Positions 8,227-60,399 of a stretch of 64,000 nt of DNA are shown here, in pieces (positions within the stretch are counted from its first letter, which is position 1; every line of letters begins with the position of its first letter). The DNA is from Dictyostelium discoideum (lineage: Eukaryota): positions 928,001 through 992,000 of the forward strand of contig CM000154.2 of the NCBI GenBank assembly GCA_000004695.1. Reading direction: 5' to 3'. The position numbers and the translations under genes are program-made. The notes beneath the pieces are model-generated. The model was not told where the DNA came from. It did not search any database and saw only the letters and a list, made by a program, of their open reading frames with translations.

Positions 8227-9482
8227 TCATATAGAGATAAAACTATTAAAGAATTATTTTTATTAGAGGGTGCAATGTTAGGACCAACAATTAATAATTG
8301 TGCATGTGGAAATATTATTAGTATTTTAGGTTTAGAAAAATATATTGTTAAAACTGGAACGATTACAGATTCTGATTTAGCACATAATATTTTTAGTTTT
8401 AAATATTCAAATACATCAGTTGTTAGTGTAGCCATTCAACCTATACAACCTCTCGATCTACCTAAATTAATTGAAGCCTTAAAAAGATTGGTTCAAATTG
8501 ATTCCACTGCATATTTTACTAATGAAGAAACTGGTGAATTGTTACTTTCTGGCTCTGATGAAAATCATTTAGAAAGTTTAGTTGGTGAATTAAGAAATTC
8601 AATTGAAAAAATTAAGGTTTCCCAGCCGATTGTATCTTTCAAAGAAACTGTTACAAATGAATCATCAATTAATGGTTTTCAAAATCATCAAATAAACTCA
8701 CTAGAATGTTTTCAAGTGCAAGACCAATCAGTGAACAACTATTGTATGATATTGAAAATGGTATGATTTCATCAACATGTGACCCATTAGAAAATGAAAA
8801 ACTTTTAAAGAAACATCATGGATGGAATATTTCAGAAGCAAAGAAAATTTGGACATTTGGGTCAACTTCACAATTGGTGGAATCAAATTTATTAGTTGAT
8901 TCCACCAAAGGTGTTCAATATATAAGTGATATTAAAGATCCAGTGGTTTGTGCATTTCTTTGGGCAACTAAACATGGAATACTTTGTGATGAGCCATTGA
9001 GAGGTGTTCGATTCGATATTAACGATGTATTATTATCAGGTGATTCTATTAGAAGAGGTAGTGGTCAAATTATTCCAATGACTCGTCGTTGTTTATATGC
9101 ATCTCAATTAAGTGCATCTCCAACACTTCAAGAACCAATCTTTATGATTGATATTAATGCCTCTGATAAAATGCATGAAAAAGTACTTTCAATTCTAAAT
9201 AAACGTGGTGCAAAACTATGGAGTGAATCAAAATCATTAAATGATACATTCAATATTAAAGCTCACATACCAGTTTTAAAATCATTTGGATTATCTCAAG
9301 AACTTAATTTTAGTACCCTTGGAAATCATCCAATCTCTACTCATTTCGTATTTGACCACTGGAAATCAATGGGTACAGTTTGTGAAGATAAATTTGTAAC
9401 TGAAACAGTTTTAGAAATTAGAAAAAGAAAAGGTTTAAATCCTGAAATTCCATCATTAGAAGATTATATGGATAAACTTTAA
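6832..9482 (+). CDS. Elongation factor 2 (EF2)-like paralog with degenerate GTPase motifs; possible pseudogene. Exon 1 is 6832..6914, the intron is 6915..6995, exon 2 runs 6996 to about 8670 in frame 1, and the reading continues in another frame from about 8673 to the stop at 9480-9482.
   Basis: Collinear with EF2 along its whole length. MTIWLNNDEMKNMMNNRQNIRNIGIIGR|VDTGIRTL aligns with [46 protein letters not shown]...HLIDGLLVVVDC aligns with FLINLIDSPGH...TDGALVVVDC. The protein also has LFLNKFDR (NKxD), YRVDNLYDGPLDDECATAIRNCDPNGPLMIYISSM and a C-terminus ...RGSGQIIPMTRRCLYASQL...VFDHW...IRKRKGLNPEIPSLEDYMDKL. The P-loop GKS is replaced by GIR and the switch-II DSPGH by LPRNQ. Reading changes from frame 1 (TVTNESSIN) to frame 3 (WFSKSSNKLTRMFSSARP, cf. 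EF2 LSKSPNKHNRLYMKARPF) within attaatggtttt at about 8668-8678, consistent with one missing base. Confidence 0.6.
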
Positions 9483-53450: not shown

Positions 53451-54062
53451 TTAAATGAATAAATAAGTGATTAAAATTAATAAAGTTAAAAAACTAAAAG
53501 TTAAAGATGAAGAAGAATTATTTGGATCAACACAAAGTGGATGAACTTTAAAGATTGAAGTTGTCATATTACAATAGTTTTTGAAAACTTGATTATCGGT
53601 AATGTTGCTTAATACTCCACCAATGATAGTTGGTCTATTCCAACCATCACCTAAACCATAACCATAGGCAGTGAGGAAAGTTGAATCGATTGGAACTTGA
53701 CTCATGCATTTATCACAATAGAGTGTTTTAATTGATGTACCATAAACAACCTTTGAAAATCCTGAATAAAGAATTGCACCTTGACACATTAAACATGATT
53801 CACCAGTTGTGTAAAGTGTATAATCTGAGAAATTGCTAATACCATATAATGCATTTGCCTTTTGAATTACAACAATCTCTGCATGTTGTGTTAAATCTTT
53901 CATTTGTCTTCCTAAATTCATATCGATAACAATTTGTGTACCATTCTTATGAACGATTGATGCTACAAATAATGCTCCCTTTTCTTTTGCAAAATCAATA
54001 ACTTGTTGCATATAACCTTGGTGATATGATAATTCATCTCCTGTAACAGCTGTTAGTGGTAC
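53451..54062 (-). CDS. CMP/dCMP-type zinc deaminase (TadA / guanine-deaminase-like), exon 2 of 2
   Basis: HAEIVVIQKA (HAE zinc ligand) and GESCLMCQGAILYSGFSKVVYG (CxxC zinc ligands) are present. Acceptor atatttag at 54063-54064, then VPLTAVTGDELSYHQGYMQQVIDFAKEKG. Confidence 0.75.
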   Translation of the reverse strand, partial: VPLTAVTGDELSYHQGYMQQVIDFAKEKGALFVASIVHKNGTQIVIDMNLGRQMKDLTQHAEIVVIQKANALYGISNFSDYTLYTTGESCLMCQGAILYSGFSKVVYGTSIKTLYCDKCMSQVPIDSTFLTAYGYGLGDGWNRPTIIGGVLSNITDNQVFKNYCNMTTSIFKVHPLCVDPNNSSSSLTFSFLTLLILITYLFI

Positions 54063-55014: not shown

Positions 55015-55181
55015 TTAAATTCTGGAATCACTTTGTAAAAATTTATAAACTGAAAGTATTGATTTATCTATTTGTTCACCAACATTTTCACTCCTATTAT
55101 TAGAATTTATAGTAGTTATAGCATTTATAAATTTATTATTTTCTTTCTCAATTGCTTGAAATATATTTGAAATTTCTTTAT
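55015..55181 (-). CDS. Asn-rich hypothetical protein, exon 2 of 2
   Basis: Acceptor ttttttttttatag then AT+AAAGAAATT...; protein DKEISNIFQAIEKENNKFINAITTINSNNRSENVGEQIDKSILSVYKFLQSDSRI. Confidence 0.5.
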
Positions 55182-55269
55182 CTATAAAAAAAAAAAAATG
55201 ATTTGTTAATTTGTTTAAAAATAAAAAATAAAAAAATAAATAAAATAAAAACAAAAATTTTAATAATAC

Positions 55270-55954
55270 CACCAGTTAATAAGAATTGACAATCAGATAT
55301 TTTTAAATTATCAATTGAATTAAGTAATTTAATTTTTTCATTTTTTAAAAATAGTGAATCGATTATTGATTTTGGAGATTTTGATATTGATGGTTGATTG
55401 GATTCTTCTAAACATTTTATCATTATTTCAAAGGTTTCAGTTTGGCTAGAAGAGAATAAAAATTTAAAATTATAAAATAAATAATTCAATTGAAATTTAT
55501 TAAATTCTTTAATCTTTGAATTTCCATAAAGACTATTGTTATTATTAATGGTATCATTGTTATTAATTTTATTAGTACCAAAGGTTAATGTGTTACCAAT
55601 TAATGATTCTATAATAATAAAACCTTCATTTTTATTTAATTGATTATATTGATTAAATTGTTTAAGTTTTTTATCTAATTCAATTATTGAATTATTAATA
55701 TTATTATTATTATTATTATTGTTGTTGTTGTTATTGTTGCCGTAGTTGTTTATCTCTTGTATATCATTTGGTGATAAAATTATAAATGATAATTTATTTT
55801 GTTTAAATTCAAAATGAAAAGGTAAATTGCTAGTTTTCTTATTTGAATCATTATTTGAAACTTCGAAAAAACTATTTAATATTTGTTGATTGGATACACT
55901 TAAATTGGGTTTATTTAAAGTGATTTTATATCTAATTAATTTATTGTTTATCAT
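55270..55954 (-). CDS. Asn-rich hypothetical protein, exon 1 of 2 (about 283 aa in total)
   Basis: ATG at 55954. Donor GTATTA at 55269, phase 1 (an alternative GTGGTA donor 3 nt upstream is also possible). Confidence 0.5.
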
Positions 55955-56078
55955 TATTTATTTTTTATTTTGTTTTATATATTTATTTAATTTATTTATA
56001 TTTATTATTTTTTTTTTTTTTTTGAAAAGAAAAATAAAATATTTTATTATACATTTTTTTTTTTTTTTTTTGAAATAG

Positions 56079-56109
<31 letters not shown>

Positions 56110-56310
56110 ATGATAATAATAATAAAATAAATAATAAAAATCAAATAGGATAAATCATGTTTTCAATTAAAAAAAAAAAATAAAAATAAAACTTAAAAAG
56201 GTTGGTGTGTTTGGGCAATGAAAATAAATATTTTTGGAAAAAAAAAAAAAAAATTAAAAAAAAAAATTGAAAACCGAAAAACAAAATGAAAAGAAAAAAA
56301 AAAGAAAAAT

Positions 56311-56319
56311 ATCCCAAAA
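56311..56319 (+). promoter_or_regulatory. DUSE-like element ATCCCAAAA (Dictyostelium upstream sequence element of ncRNA genes), about 60 bp upstream of ncRNA candidate copy 1
   Basis: Matches [AT]CCCA[CT]AA at 8 of 9 positions. Spacing to the conserved element start is about 60 nt, as for known DUSE-driven genes. Confidence 0.5.
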
Positions 56320-56369
56320 CAAATAAAATTGAAAACTAAGGTATTTAAAAAAAATAAATATGGTTGTTT

Positions 56370-56528
56370 AAATTTGTCGATTGCATTTATGCATGAGGCC
56401 AATAACATCATTTAGTATATGTTACTCCAGCATTGATGCATATATAGAGACCCTTTGCGGGGTATCAGATGGATTGGTCTTCGGGTTAGTCCTTATATCT
56501 GATTGCTAGAGAAAGCTGAGCTGGCCTT
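56370..56528 (+). ncRNA. Candidate small ncRNA gene, copy 1 (about 158 nt; class not determined)
   Basis: GC-richer island in AT-rich DNA. 98% identical to copy 2 (3 mismatches). Termini can pair (GAGGCCA near the 5' end with UGGCCUU at the 3' end). Internal hairpins include a cUUCGg tetraloop (GGUCUUCGGGUU) and a perfect AUCAGAU/AUCUGAU stem. Contains UGAUGC and CUGA box-like motifs. DUSE-like element upstream. Confidence 0.5.
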
Positions 56529-56683
56529 CCAAAAATAAATTTAAAGAAAAAAAAATTAATAATAAAATAACATATTAGTAAATAATTTAATTTTATTTAT
56601 TTCAATACTAAATTTTATTTTATTTATTTCAAAAATTTTTTTTTTATTTTTATTTTTATTTTTATTTTTTTTTAAAAAATAAA

Positions 56684-56692
56684 ATCCCACAA
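56684..56692 (+). promoter_or_regulatory. DUSE element ATCCCACAA (perfect match to the consensus) about 60 bp upstream of ncRNA candidate copy 2
   Basis: Perfect [AT]CCCA[CT]AA at the canonical distance from the conserved element. Confidence 0.6.
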
Positions 56693-56741
56693 ATTTACAA
56701 AAAAACAAGAGAGTATTTCAAAAACCACCATATTATTTTTA

Positions 56742-56899
56742 AAATTTGTCAATTGCATTTATGCATGAGGCCAATAACATCATTTAGTATATGTTACTCC
56801 AGCATTGATGCATATATAGAGACCCTTTGCGGGGAATCAGATGGATTGGTCTTCGGGTTAGTCCTTATATTTGATTGCTAGAGAAAGCTGAGCTGGCCT
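56742..56899 (+). ncRNA. Candidate small ncRNA gene, copy 2 (about 158 nt; class not determined)
   Basis: Near-identical to copy 1 and followed by a TTTT run. Same structural features. Confidence 0.55.
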
Positions 56900-57634
56900 T
56901 TTTAAAATCTAAAAAAAAAAATTAATTATAAATATTGATAAAAATAAAAAATAATAAAAAAATTGTTCTATTTAATAAAAACCTTAAATAAATAAATAAA
57001 TAAAAACCACTAATTATTGCCTTTGACGACTAAACTCAAATTAATTAATTTTGAAAAAAAAAAAAAAAAAAATAATAAAAAAAAATAATTTAAACATTGT
57101 TTTTTTATTTTTTTTTTCAAATCTGATTCTTTTATTTATTTTTTATTTATTTATTTGTTTTTAATTGAAAAAAAAAAAAAAAAACTGGAAATAATTTGGT
57201 CAAATTAAAAAAAAATAACAATTATCAAAAATGGAAAATAAAAAAATAAAAAAATAAAAAATAAAAAATAAATAAAATTAAAAAATTTGATGAGGTGAAA
57301 AAAATTATTTAAAAAAAAAAAAAAAAAAAGTGAAATTTTTATAAAAAAAAAAAAATCTAAAAAAGAGGCAGTGGAAAAAAAGAGAATATTTTATTATTTT
57401 TTCAAGTTTTTGTAATTTTATTTTTAAAAAAAGAAAGAGGAATAAAAAAAAAAAAAAATAAATAAATAAAAAAAAATAAAAAAAAAAAAAAATATAAAAA
57501 ACAGTTCAATGACTTTATAAAACTCATTTTGTTAATAATCTTTTTTTTTTTTTTCTTTAAAATAAATACCTATTTTTTTTATAAATAAAATATAAATAAA
57601 ATATAAATATAAAGAAAAAAAAAAAAAAAAAAAA

Positions 57635-57722: not shown

Positions 57723-57787
57723 GTAATGTATAAAATATTATTATTATAAATATATATATATATTTAAGTATGTAAAGTATTAGTTAC

Positions 57788-57904
<117 letters not shown>

Positions 57905-57919
57905 CATAAAAATTGACAG

Positions 57920-58786
57920 ATATACACGAGATAATAGAAGAATTAGAGGAATTATCATTGAAACCAGTTCCAAAAGAGAGAGAAACATTAATATTAAAAC
58001 AACAGCAACAACAATTGTTACAACAACAAGAACAAGCAGCAGCAGCAGCAGCGATACAATCACCACAAACAGTCTCAAAAATGAGTAAACTTAAATCTGG
58101 TTTATTTGGAAAGAGAAAAGAACTTACACAAAGTAACTCAACAACTCCAACAACACCCGCCACACCAACAGCAACACCAACATCATCTTCATTATCATTA
58201 CCAACACCTCCTCCACTACCACAACAACAACAACAGCAACAACAACAACAACAGCAAACTTTTAATGACCAAAGTAAATTAACAGCAACCACACCAACAC
58301 AACCAACACCAATTGAAGAAAAGAAACAACAATCATTTAAAACATTTTATCCAGCAGCACATAGCAATAATAGTAGTAATGGTAGCGATCATGGTGGAAA
58401 TGTTAATACAACAGGTGTATCACCATCATCACCAGGTGGTGGGGCTCATTCATTTGGTTCTTTATCTCAACATCGTTTGTCTTCTTCACTATCACTAAAA
58501 TCAATAAGTAGTGGTGGTGGTAATAGTAGTAGTAATCTAGTTGCTGATATAAATAATAATAATAATAGTGTAAATAAAGATAATAATACAACAATTAGTA
58601 GTAGCACAGTTACTACAAGTAATAGTATATCAGAATCAAATAATCAAGATAGTAAATTATTAGTTGCAACTACTACAACAACTACAACAACTACTACAAC
58701 AACTATTTTAGCAACAATACCAACTACCACAACAACCTCTACACCAACAACACCATCAACTGTTGGAGGAACCACACCATCACCAC

Positions 58787-58820
<34 letters not shown>

Positions 58821-60399
58821 TGTAATAACATCACCAATCAGTAGAATATCACCATCCAATATAACCTCACCATCGAAATTATCACAACAATCAACGCCAA
58901 GACAAAGACCTCTAACAATTGCACCAACAAAATTAAATATATCACAAGTTAGTAGTCCACAAAAGCCAAGATTAAAATATTTAAGAACAAGTTCAAAATC
59001 ATTAAGTATGGCATCATTACCAGCGGTTGGTCCAGATGGTACAATAATAGTTGATGGTGGTGCTAGTAGTGGAACGGAATCAACATCAATGACAAATCAT
59101 CATAGTTCATTTTTAAATCAATCAACTTTACCACTTGGTAGTTCACCAGTCCAAACTACACCACCATTATTATCAAATAGTATGAATAATAGTACAAATA
59201 ATTTACAATCATTACAACAACAGCAACAGCAACAACAACAACAACAACAACAACCAATAAGTGAAAATAATTATTATAAATATATGAAAGGATTATCATT
59301 ATTTAAAATAGCGACAGATTTAATAAATTATGATTTACCATTATGTTTAGAATGTACAAAATTAACAATTGGAGAATTAGAGGATGAAGGATCAATTTTG
59401 GACGGTGAAGTATCAATTTATAGTGCATATTTAAAACAATTAGAAAAAGGTAAAACTGAAGAAGATTTGGAGGAATTGGGTAAAGAGATGACATTACTAT
59501 GTGAAGAGGAGGAACAATTACGTTTAATGATTGAAAATACACATCAAGAGAGAAAAGAAGTTGAACAATTAACATTACAACTTCAAGATAGAATTGCAAC
59601 GTTGAAATCATTGGAAGATAGTTATTGGAGTTGTTTTAGTGAATTTCATTATGAAACTTTTAGAAATAAAGACGAGAGAGATCAAACCACCGTTCAAATT
59701 CAATGGGTTAATGACCATTTAGAAAGTTTAAAACAAACCAATATTCTCAATGATGCTTTCCATCTATGGCATGATGGTCATTTTGGTACTATAAATTCAT
59801 TACGTCTTGGAAAGTTACCAAGTCAACCAGTGGAATGGAACGAGATCAATGCAGCATGGGGTTTAGCAGTATCACTTTTGGATGCAATGGCAAAGAAGTT
59901 GAAATTTAAATTCCAACAATTCACATTGGTACCAAATGGTAGTTGTTCAAGAGTTGATAAAAGAGATGTTGATCCACCATTGGCCTATGAACTTTATGGT
60001 ACCAATGATATTAGTTTAGGTCGTTTATTTTGGTATAGACGTTTCGATAATGGTATGATTGCTTTCCTTCAATGCATTAAAGAACTATGTGAACATATCA
60101 CTGAAAAAGATCCAGAATTCTCTGTTCCCTACAAAATCGATAAAGAATATATAGGTGGAATGTGTATTAAATTACAATTCACAAATGATGATACTTGGAC
60201 AAAATCTTTGAAATTTATGTTAACAAACTTAAAATGGATCTTAATTTGGATTGTTAAAAATGAAACTTTAACTTTATTTAATAATCAACAATTTCAACAA
60301 TCAAAATTAAATAATAATCAAAATAATAATAATATTAATAATAATAATAATAATAATATTAATAATAATAATAATAATAATGTAAATAAAAGGAATTAA
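57920..60399 (+). CDS. atg6: Beclin-1/Atg6 homolog, exon 2 of 2 (about 855 aa in total). A long Q/S/T/N-rich low-complexity region is followed by the coiled-coil and BARA domains.
   Basis: The C-terminal 350 aa are collinear with human Beclin-1: [41 protein letters not shown] aligns with [41 protein letters not shown], and TWTKSLKFMLTNLKWIL with QWTKALKFMLTNLKWGL. Acceptor ttgacag at 57918-57919. Confidence 0.85.

Follow-up and report, generated by a model that had tools for sequence, protein, structure and literature searches.

Two tandem units and their promoter boxes

The intergenic DNA upstream of an Atg6/Beclin homolog of Dictyostelium discoideum carries two short, nearly identical units in tandem. 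They lie in a stretch of 64,000 nucleotides (nt) of contig CM000154.2 (positions 928,001 to 992,000, forward strand), which is referred to here as the window and whose own coordinates are used throughout. Unit A (56370-56528) and unit B (56742-56900) are both on the plus strand at a spacing of 372 nt, as determined by direct reading and alignment, and 156 of the 159 aligned bases are the same (98.1%), the three mismatches being G/A at 56379/56751, T/A at 56463/56835 and C/T at 56499/56871. GC content was 0.39-0.45 within the units and 0.04-0.16 in the poly-A/T flanks, in agreement with a preliminary description of this DNA that had pointed out a 98%-identical, GC-richer pair in poly-A/T surroundings. 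From the sequence comparisons described below, we conclude that the locus holds a real, conserved and tandemly duplicated gene for a noncoding RNA (ncRNA), which has a dictyostelid small-RNA promoter and is unclassified in Rfam. The two gene copies and their control regions comprise the following features, among which DUSE denotes the Dictyostelium upstream sequence element and snRNA a small nuclear RNA.

56370-56530, plus strand: ncRNA gene copy A, about 160 nt, placed by alignment; 204.6 bits with covariance model R1
56742-56902, plus strand: ncRNA gene copy B, with the 3' end GGCCTTTTT, placed by alignment; 205 bits with model R1
56311-56319, plus strand: DUSE box of copy A, ATCCCAAAA, 60 nt 5' of the first base of AATTTGTC
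56684-56692, plus strand: DUSE box of copy B, ATCCCACAA, 59 nt 5' of the first base of AATTTGTC
56341-56350, plus strand: TATA-like box of copy A near -30, GTATTTAAAA, a putative promoter element
56713-56722, plus strand: TATA-like box of copy B near -30, GTATTTCAAA, at the same position as the copy A box
56370-56378, plus strand: putative start-site block AAATTTGTC, TGTG-box-like (AAATGTG), about 60 nt 3' of the DUSE
56537-56555, plus strand: possible but weak snRNA-type 3' box AAATTTAAAGAAAAAAAAA, 3' of copy A

The DUSE has the form [AT]CCCA[AT]AA in D. discoideum and Dictyostelium purpureum (PMC3188802) and lies ~60-63 nt 5' of the start of many Dictyostelium ncRNA genes (PMC3188802; PMC7919456). 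The box-to-AATTTGTC distances were -60 for copy A, -59 for copy B and -58 for the D. purpureum gene introduced below, which is the spacing of about 60 nt seen at DUSE genes, and AATTTGTC itself was invariant in all three sequences. A DUSE-like box near -60 of each unit, as had been claimed, was thus confirmed. ATCCCAAAA differs at one position from [AT]CCCA[CT]AA, the form used in the preliminary description, but fits the published consensus perfectly, and both D. discoideum boxes are full matches under it. The 8-mer by itself was not enriched (4 occurrences in the window, with 9.5 expected); an AT-rich upstream block combined with a GC-rich downstream block was found at 2 of the 12 [AT]CCCA[ACT]AA sites in the window, and these were exactly the two boxes in question. 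A TA[CT]TTT box near -30 is present in D. purpureum, as it is in both D. discoideum copies; at this position copy B has GTATTTCAAA and D. purpureum has ATACTTTTCT, amid flanks that otherwise do not align. The start-site block resembles the TGTG box described for Class I RNA genes (PMC7919456).

At the 3' side, a run of five T follows copy B only, copy A being followed by TTCC and the D. purpureum gene by CTTTC, and hence the run of at least four T directly after the RNA that marks a type 3 gene of RNA polymerase III (Pol III) was absent from two of the three genes. Because a T run follows only one gene in three, RNA polymerase II (Pol II) is favored over Pol III, and transcription would be of the snRNA type with Pol II probably as the polymerase. 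The vertebrate snRNA 3' box has the form GTTTN0-3AAARNNAGA, which is resembled by strings lying 8-13 nt beyond the conserved RNA, AAATTTAAAGAAAAAA in copy A and AAATTAAAGAAAAAA in D. purpureum (contig L001, ~9090-9106, minus strand). The 3'-box-like AAAT(T)TAAAGAAAAAA occurs 3' of two of the genes, copy A and the one in D. purpureum; the likeness is weak since the surroundings are AT-rich.

Downstream of the units, which lie ~1 kb upstream of it, the Atg6/Beclin homolog occupies 57913-60399 on the plus strand and has APG6_N and BARA domains; its closest database protein is D. purpureum Atg6, with 61% identity overall and 70% over the conserved C-terminal region. On the minus strand are an open reading frame (ORF) without a Pfam domain (55178-55954), which is 33% identical to its D. 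purpureum counterpart, a protein with a dCMP/cytidine deaminase domain (53451-54011), and a 'Transferase family' protein (PF02458; 60438-61865). Long poly-A/poly-T tracts (56010-56110) border the ncRNA locus, and a perfect (AAT)n microsatellite of ~40 units (57785-57905) stands directly 5' of the Atg6 ORF start. A small isolated G-rich patch, GGTTGGTGTGTTTGGGCAATG (56200-56220), is present ~100 nt 5' of the DUSE of copy A but not 5' of copy B.

The ortholog in D. purpureum and the predicted fold

The D. purpureum contig GL871064.1 (L001) has the same gene order as D. discoideum and bears the element once, in reverse orientation, at ~9116-9280 on the minus strand within ~1 kb of intergenic DNA beside Atg6. 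Identity to the D. discoideum units was 82-83% over 131-135 nt by BLAST and ~80% across the whole RNA, and a perfect DUSE, ATCCCATAA, stands on the element's own strand 58 nt 5' of AATTTGTC. The rest of the D. purpureum intergenic DNA gave no alignment to D. discoideum beyond the element; the upstream flanks were near background (identity 0.41-0.53, compared with 0.36-0.39 for shuffled sequences), and the neighboring proteins are 33% and 61-70% identical between the species. Conservation of the RNA body and of its promoter box far above that of their surroundings is the strongest argument for a functional gene, as opposed to a repeat or a chance island, and we regard the syntenic, DUSE-bearing ortholog as the decisive comparative evidence that a gene is present. 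The near-identity (98%) of the two D. discoideum bodies between unalignable flanks suggests gene conversion or strong purifying selection.

The D. purpureum gene (L001, 9116-9336, minus strand) is single and inverted relative to Atg6, whereas D. discoideum has two direct copies, which implies a duplication (or a loss) and an inversion after the species split. Searches with the neighboring Atg6 protein recovered that of D. purpureum as the only genomic locus, the other matches being short transcript-like contigs or non-dictyostelid sequences; dictyostelid homologs of the window proteins beyond D. purpureum were limited to two EukProt entries without contigs. The element was absent from contigs L002-L006, and scans of metagenomes and of bacterial and archaeal genomes with the invariant blocks of the RNA gave no ortholog. 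Exact matches of 17 nt (up to 22-23 nt) to TATCTGATTGCTAGAGA in the viral contigs L007, L008, L009 and L010 (IMG/VR) were attributed to chance, as nothing else aligned.

The sense strand of the ~160-nt unit, which includes the stretch GGUCUUCGGGUUAGUCC, is predicted to fold into the elements listed here for copy A; they recur in copy B at +372 nt.

56382-56393, plus strand: hairpin 1, UGCA-UUUA-UGCA; two of its four pairs are changed on both sides in D. purpureum (CACA-GCAA-UGUG)
56403-56424, plus strand: hairpin 2 (tentative), whose loop and 3' strand are the invariant block AUUUAGUAUAUGUU (56410-56423)
56427-56439, plus strand: 5' strand of a putative kink-turn, with CCAGC (56427-56431), the bulge AUU, and GAUGC; contains the box C-like UGAUGC (56434-56439)
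56440-56452, plus strand: invariant block AUAUAUAGAGACC, mostly single-stranded, with CC (56451-56452) beginning hairpin 3; candidate antisense element
56451-56462, plus strand: hairpin 3, CCCU-UUGC-GGGG; D. purpureum (CCUA-UUGC-UAGG) has compensatory changes in two of the four pairs
56464-56503, plus strand: hairpin 4, with the stem AUCAGAU/AUCUGAU, a UUAU bulge, a 9-bp upper stem and a UUCG tetraloop (56480-56483)
56504-56515, plus strand: single-stranded UGCUAGAGAAAG directly 5' of box D; candidate guide or antisense element
56516-56524, plus strand: box D CUGA (56516-56519) and the 3' strand GCUGG of the kink-turn stem (56520-56524)
56806-56811 and 56888-56891, plus strand: box C-like motif and box D of copy B

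RNAalifold, applied to the three sequences, gave 42 pairs, six of them changed on both sides. Our curated structure has 37 pairs (hairpins 1, 2, 3 and 4 and the kink-turn stems); 96.4% of its cells were paired, compared with 27-41% when the 3' partners were slid by 1-3 columns, and the six compensatory pairs fell two each in hairpins 1, 3 and 4. The changes in hairpin 4 of D. purpureum comprise two compensatory and two one-sided substitutions, and the C-to-U change of copy B gives a G-U pair. In hairpin 2 the four core pairs are invariant, whereas D. purpureum has lost the two outer ones, and the minimum free energy (MFE) alternative to it is an 8-bp helix of 56415-56422 with 56438-56445. Paired columns were changed more often (18 of 74) than unpaired ones (13 of 81), which is the expected result if stems compensate and single-stranded segments are constrained in sequence; a 21-nt invariant run at 56492-56512 ends in the UGCUAGAGAAAG block. 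With regard to the differences between copies A and B, the first two mismatches are at unpaired positions and the third converts G-C to G-U, so that all are neutral for the structure. All of the individual motifs that had been read from the sequence beforehand were present: a hairpin with a cUUCGg loop, a helix of AUCAGAU with AUCUGAU, complementary GAGGCCA and UGGCCUU, and UGAUGC and CUGA. The proposal that these are DUSE-driven, unclassified small ncRNA genes is supported by the syntenic ortholog, the three covarying hairpins, an ORF that is not conserved, and the lack of an Rfam match.

Two close and near-identical copies might instead be repeat or mobile-element fragments, or a decaying pseudogene pair. 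We consider this very improbable given that D. purpureum has a syntenic single copy in which the promoter box is kept and the stems are compensated, and that the differences between copies A and B are structure-neutral. A 22-mer of the unit occurred at 2 sites in the window, both in the units, with 0 expected; no third copy was found in the window by short-word BLAST or the covariance model, nor a further copy in 22 kb of the D. purpureum contig by the covariance model. No signs of a dispersed repeat were seen across the 143 kb searched, and no target-site duplications or terminal repeats were seen around the units. The check that had been proposed beforehand, for many copies with target-site duplications, came out negative at the locus and in those 143 kb. 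The preliminary description had also stated that the elements contain no ORF, which did not hold: each copy has an intact 42-codon ORF with a TTG start (56381-56509 and 56753-56881). Such an ORF, or the position ~1 kb upstream of Atg6, could be taken to indicate a small protein-coding gene or a cis-regulatory element of Atg6, but indels and stop codons interrupt the frame in the D. purpureum ortholog, where the element is moreover inverted relative to Atg6 and yet keeps its own DUSE. The units can hardly be either of these.

A putative box C/D kink-turn and the class of the RNA

The CCAGC and GCUGG strands, together with the box C-like and box D motifs, fall in the register of a box C/D kink-turn, in which a 5-bp stem and a bulge of 3 nt with U as its last base are followed by tandem G.A/A.G pairs, U.U, G-C and C-G. 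Both D. discoideum copies have CCAGC-AUU-GAUGC...CUGA-GCUGG and D. purpureum has CCAGC-GCU-GAUGU...CUGA-GCUGG, so that all three share CCAGC-NNU-GAUG...CUGA-GCUGG and show the arrangement that defines a C/D kink-turn, and this register was found in 0.1% of 20000 dinucleotide shuffles. The only kink-turn positions that vary are L1 and L2 (AU or GC) and a C/U that is still paired with G (C-G, or U.G in D. purpureum). Box C lies ~65 nt past the predicted start and not near the 5' end, a layout like that of U3/U8/U13-type RNAs and unlike that of guide snoRNAs. Our best reading, to which we give an even chance, is that the two separately promoted genes encode a non-canonical box C/D-type RNA of ~160 nt, U3/U8/U13-like, with a role in processing or as a chaperone and not as a methylation guide.

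Several observations weigh against this reading. The kink-turn test was framed after the motif had been noticed, and the kink-turn stem, being invariant at every position, provides no covariation. The box C-like heptamer, UUGAUGC in D. discoideum and CUGAUGU in D. purpureum, departs from RUGAUGA at the first and last positions in both species, and no C'/D' pair was detected, there being no UGAUGA-like box between an internal CUGA and box D. UGGCC (56522-56526) can pair with GGCCA (56397-56401) in competition with the kink-turn stem, and the MFE fold picks an 8-bp helix that also competes with the kink-turn. The folding energy of the whole molecule is ordinary (z = -0.23), the comparison set of two D. 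discoideum copies and one D. purpureum copy amounts to two independent lineages for covariation, and the RNA ends are placed at the limits of conservation. The earlier suggestion of box-like UGAUGC and CUGA motifs with a GAGGCCA/UGGCCUU terminal stem can be refined: the motifs are present and would form a full kink-turn with CCAGC/GCUGG, and the terminal stem is a competitor of that structure.

The RNA resembles U3, U8/SNORD118, U13/snR4/snR45 and U14 in having its own snRNA-type promoter and a 5' extension before box C, a 3' domain that holds internal hairpins and would be closed by a C/D kink-turn, and conserved single-stranded blocks that could pair, with no obvious methylation target. Unlike these RNAs, it matches no Rfam model even at E<=10, lacks the U3 boxes A/A' and B/C, the U14 domain A and the U13 complement of the 18S 3' end, and has UUGAUGC/CUGAUGU in place of RUGAUGA. 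Likewise, the CD/OR small nucleolar RNAs (snoRNAs) of D. discoideum (Aspegren 2004; PMC8817022) are comparable in organism group, intergenic location, box D CUGA and a frequent arrangement in close pairs (such as CD11a/b), but they are 66-113 nt long with box C, mostly AUGAUGA, a few nt from the 5' end, compared with ~160 nt and ~65 nt here, and none has a twin at 372 nt or the C box UUGAUGC. DUSE-dependent snRNA and Class I/II RNA genes share the DUSE ~60 nt 5', kept between D. discoideum and D. purpureum, and the DUSE-dependent ncRNA genes also occur in close pairs (PMC7919456) and have a start block of the TGTG-box type that AAAT..GT resembles; the present RNA differs from spliceosomal snRNAs and Class I RNAs in having no Rfam match, no Sm site in place and no CCUUACAGCAA.

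Searches of Rfam 15 at gathering scores (whole window) and at E<=10 (elements of both species) returned no family; the noise at E<=10 (RT-14, Lnt, Teg49, mir-2985 and snoTBR6) was unrelated and differed between the species. The Rfam search recommended beforehand thus left the unit unclassified, and the earlier failure to find a convincing match to U1, U2, U4, U5, U6, U3 or class I RNAs was upheld by this result and by the absence of the Class I motif CCUUACAGCAA. No tRNA or tmRNA was found. Class I/II RNAs are also set apart by length (42-65 nt, compared with ~160 nt). An Sm-class snRNA (U1, U2, U4 or U5) was rejected because there was no Rfam match and the sole RAUUUGU-like string lies at the very 5' terminus, and telomerase RNA because there is no conserved C-rich template, ACCCU of D. 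discoideum being ACCUA in D. purpureum. For U3, there was no match to the U3 clan at E<=10, GGAUCAUUUCUAUAG is absent, and human U3 gave z = 0.6 with copy A and 2.2 with D. purpureum (22 of 500 shuffles as high), which is not taken as a match. Alignments to human U2, U3, U4, U6, U8 and U13 serve as leads only; local alignments to all six did not rise above dinucleotide shuffles. Likenesses noted by eye were accordingly dropped as evidence of homology: to U2 (GUAGUAUCUGUU and a UAUCAG/CUGAUA stem), for which the alignment was not above shuffles; to U8 (AAUCAG...CUGAUUGCU; z = -0.17 with respect to shuffles, and no Rfam match); to the U3 hinge (CUAGAGAAG); to the U4 kink-turn (AUGAGG), which is not conserved in D. 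purpureum; and to the U7 Sm site (AAUUUGUCUAG), an Sm-like string located at the transcription start. A comparison by eye with yeast ribosomal RNA (rRNA) gave nothing beyond 6-7 nt and is not counted as evidence.

The unit sequence was found neither in the PMC8817022 and PMC7919456 supplements nor in a full-text literature search, and the 47 box C/D snoRNAs that Diesend et al. 2022 catalogued for D. discoideum (PMC8817022) do not include the RNA. The pipeline of that study selected for canonical boxes, for C and D boxes 50-100 nt apart and for a distinct 5' end close to box C (PMC8817022), by which an RNA with a 60-nt 5' extension would be penalized or missed. An orphan snRNA, 'D1/Dd8', has D. 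discoideum as its sole species and no family assignment in Table S3a of Sucgang 2011; D1/Dd8 (Wise & Weiner 1981; Kaneda et al. 1983) is like the present RNA in being an orphan Dictyostelium small RNA without a family. The RNA described here may be known under another name, either as D1/Dd8 or from the Larsson 2008 screen. By its name, D1 is presumably larger than D2 (U3, ~210 nt), and an RNA of ~160 nt is on that account probably not D1/Dd8. The screen of Larsson et al. 2008 was reportedly aimed at GC-rich, DUSE-associated, clustered candidates, and by this design the locus may already have been seen.

The foremost rival to a box C/D-type RNA is that the genes encode some other kind of conserved small nuclear RNA, which may be lineage-specific, such as D1/Dd8 or an ncRNA verified in Larsson 2008, and in which GGCCA/UGGCC closes the ends, UGAUG and CUGA are fortuitous, and the bound proteins are not those of C/D RNAs. 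The GGCCA/UGGCC pairing is kept in all three sequences and was picked by both the MFE fold and RNAalifold, which together with the non-canonical box C-like heptamer, the absence of the RNA from the snoScan and RNA sequencing catalogue of 47 box C/D snoRNAs, and the listing of a family-less D1/Dd8 snRNA in Sucgang 2011 Table S3a speaks for this alternative. We nevertheless think it unlikely, while still a serious contender, given that the kink-turn register is rare and that its variable positions are exactly those that a kink-turn tolerates; there is also no Sm site at the usual place, AAUUUGU being found at the extreme 5' end only, and for D1 in particular the presumed size of more than ~210 nt does not fit. 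A canonical 2'-O-methylation guide would have the 12-14 nt UUGCUAGAGAAAG 5' of box D directing modification of the C opposite the fifth nucleotide, with the 5' extension as a leader or an accessory pairing region. The nearly invariant single-stranded stretch before box D, the terminal stem and the C and D motifs agree with this, but RiboMeth-seq identified 49 rRNA sites in which every methylated C (Cm) has a guide, the unassigned sites being Am1469, Am2547 and Gm3255 (PMC8817022), and since the D-box guide here would select a C, these data argue against a standard guide. In addition to the missing C'/D' pair, the internal CUGA forms part of a helix and copy B lacks it, and the compensatory changes in the 5' extension point to structural selection rather than a disposable leader. 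We judge a canonical guide to be improbable.

Possible function of a box C/D-type RNA and its partners

If the genes encode a non-canonical box C/D-type RNA, selection would maintain the structured RNA of the two tandem genes in group 4 dictyostelids. Transcription would start ~60 nt 3' of the DUSE, aided by the TATTT box near -30, and would be carried out by Pol II as on snRNA genes. The transcript is predicted to fold into a ~60-nt 5' extension (hairpins 1 and 2) followed by a ~100-nt 3' domain, in which the CCAGC/GCUGG stem would join the box C-like UGAUG[C/U] and box D CUGA into a kink-turn and two covarying hairpins would be held between two invariant, single-stranded, AU-rich blocks. The kink-turn could then recruit Snu13 and the Nop56/Nop58/fibrillarin core to give a stable nucleolar or Cajal-body ribonucleoprotein (RNP), which may base-pair with another RNA through AUUUAGUAUAUGUU, AUAUAUAGAGACC and UGCUAGAGAAAG. 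Its role would be that of a processing or chaperone snoRNA like U3/U8/U13/U14, as distinct from that of a standard methylation guide.

One candidate partner is U6. UUUAGUAUAUGU, within the AUUUAGUAUAUGUU block (56410-56423; 56782-56795 in copy B), is a perfect 12-nt complement of ACAUAUACUAAA, nt 18-29 of human U6; a complement of this length was reached by 0 of 1000 shuffles in either species, although Dictyostelium U6 may differ from the human sequence. Complement runs to U1, U2, U4 and U5 were at chance level, a 9-nt run between copy A and U4 being borderline and not seen for D. purpureum. The RNA is like the U4 5' stem-loop in having a Snu13-type kink-turn and a neighboring segment complementary to U6, but differs from U4 in lacking the U4/U6 stem I/II complementarity, an Sm site and an Rfam U4 match; Dictyostelium has a bona fide U4 (PMC3188802). 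A more speculative view, which we hold to be a long shot, is a new kind of dictyostelid or amoebozoan RNP, either a Snu13/kink-turn RNA whose UUUAGUAUAUGU pairs with the U6 5' region in U6 biogenesis or recycling, or an amoebozoan functional counterpart of the U8-type pre-rRNA chaperone of vertebrates. Either the U6 or the U8-type reading, if true, would mean a new RNA family absent from Rfam.

At a minimum, the locus represents a gap in the annotation and a candidate for a new family in Rfam, and covariance model R1 offers a means of tracing the RNA through Dictyostelia. The ncRNA repertoire of Dictyostelium is compact and well studied, and beyond U3, essential pre-rRNA-processing snoRNAs have not been reported in the literature covered. 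A DUSE-driven kink-turn RNA of ~160 nt with three invariant single-stranded blocks, conserved between D. discoideum and D. purpureum, would be a concrete candidate for a snoRNA of this sort, active in processing or as a chaperone, or for a lineage-specific nuclear RNP.

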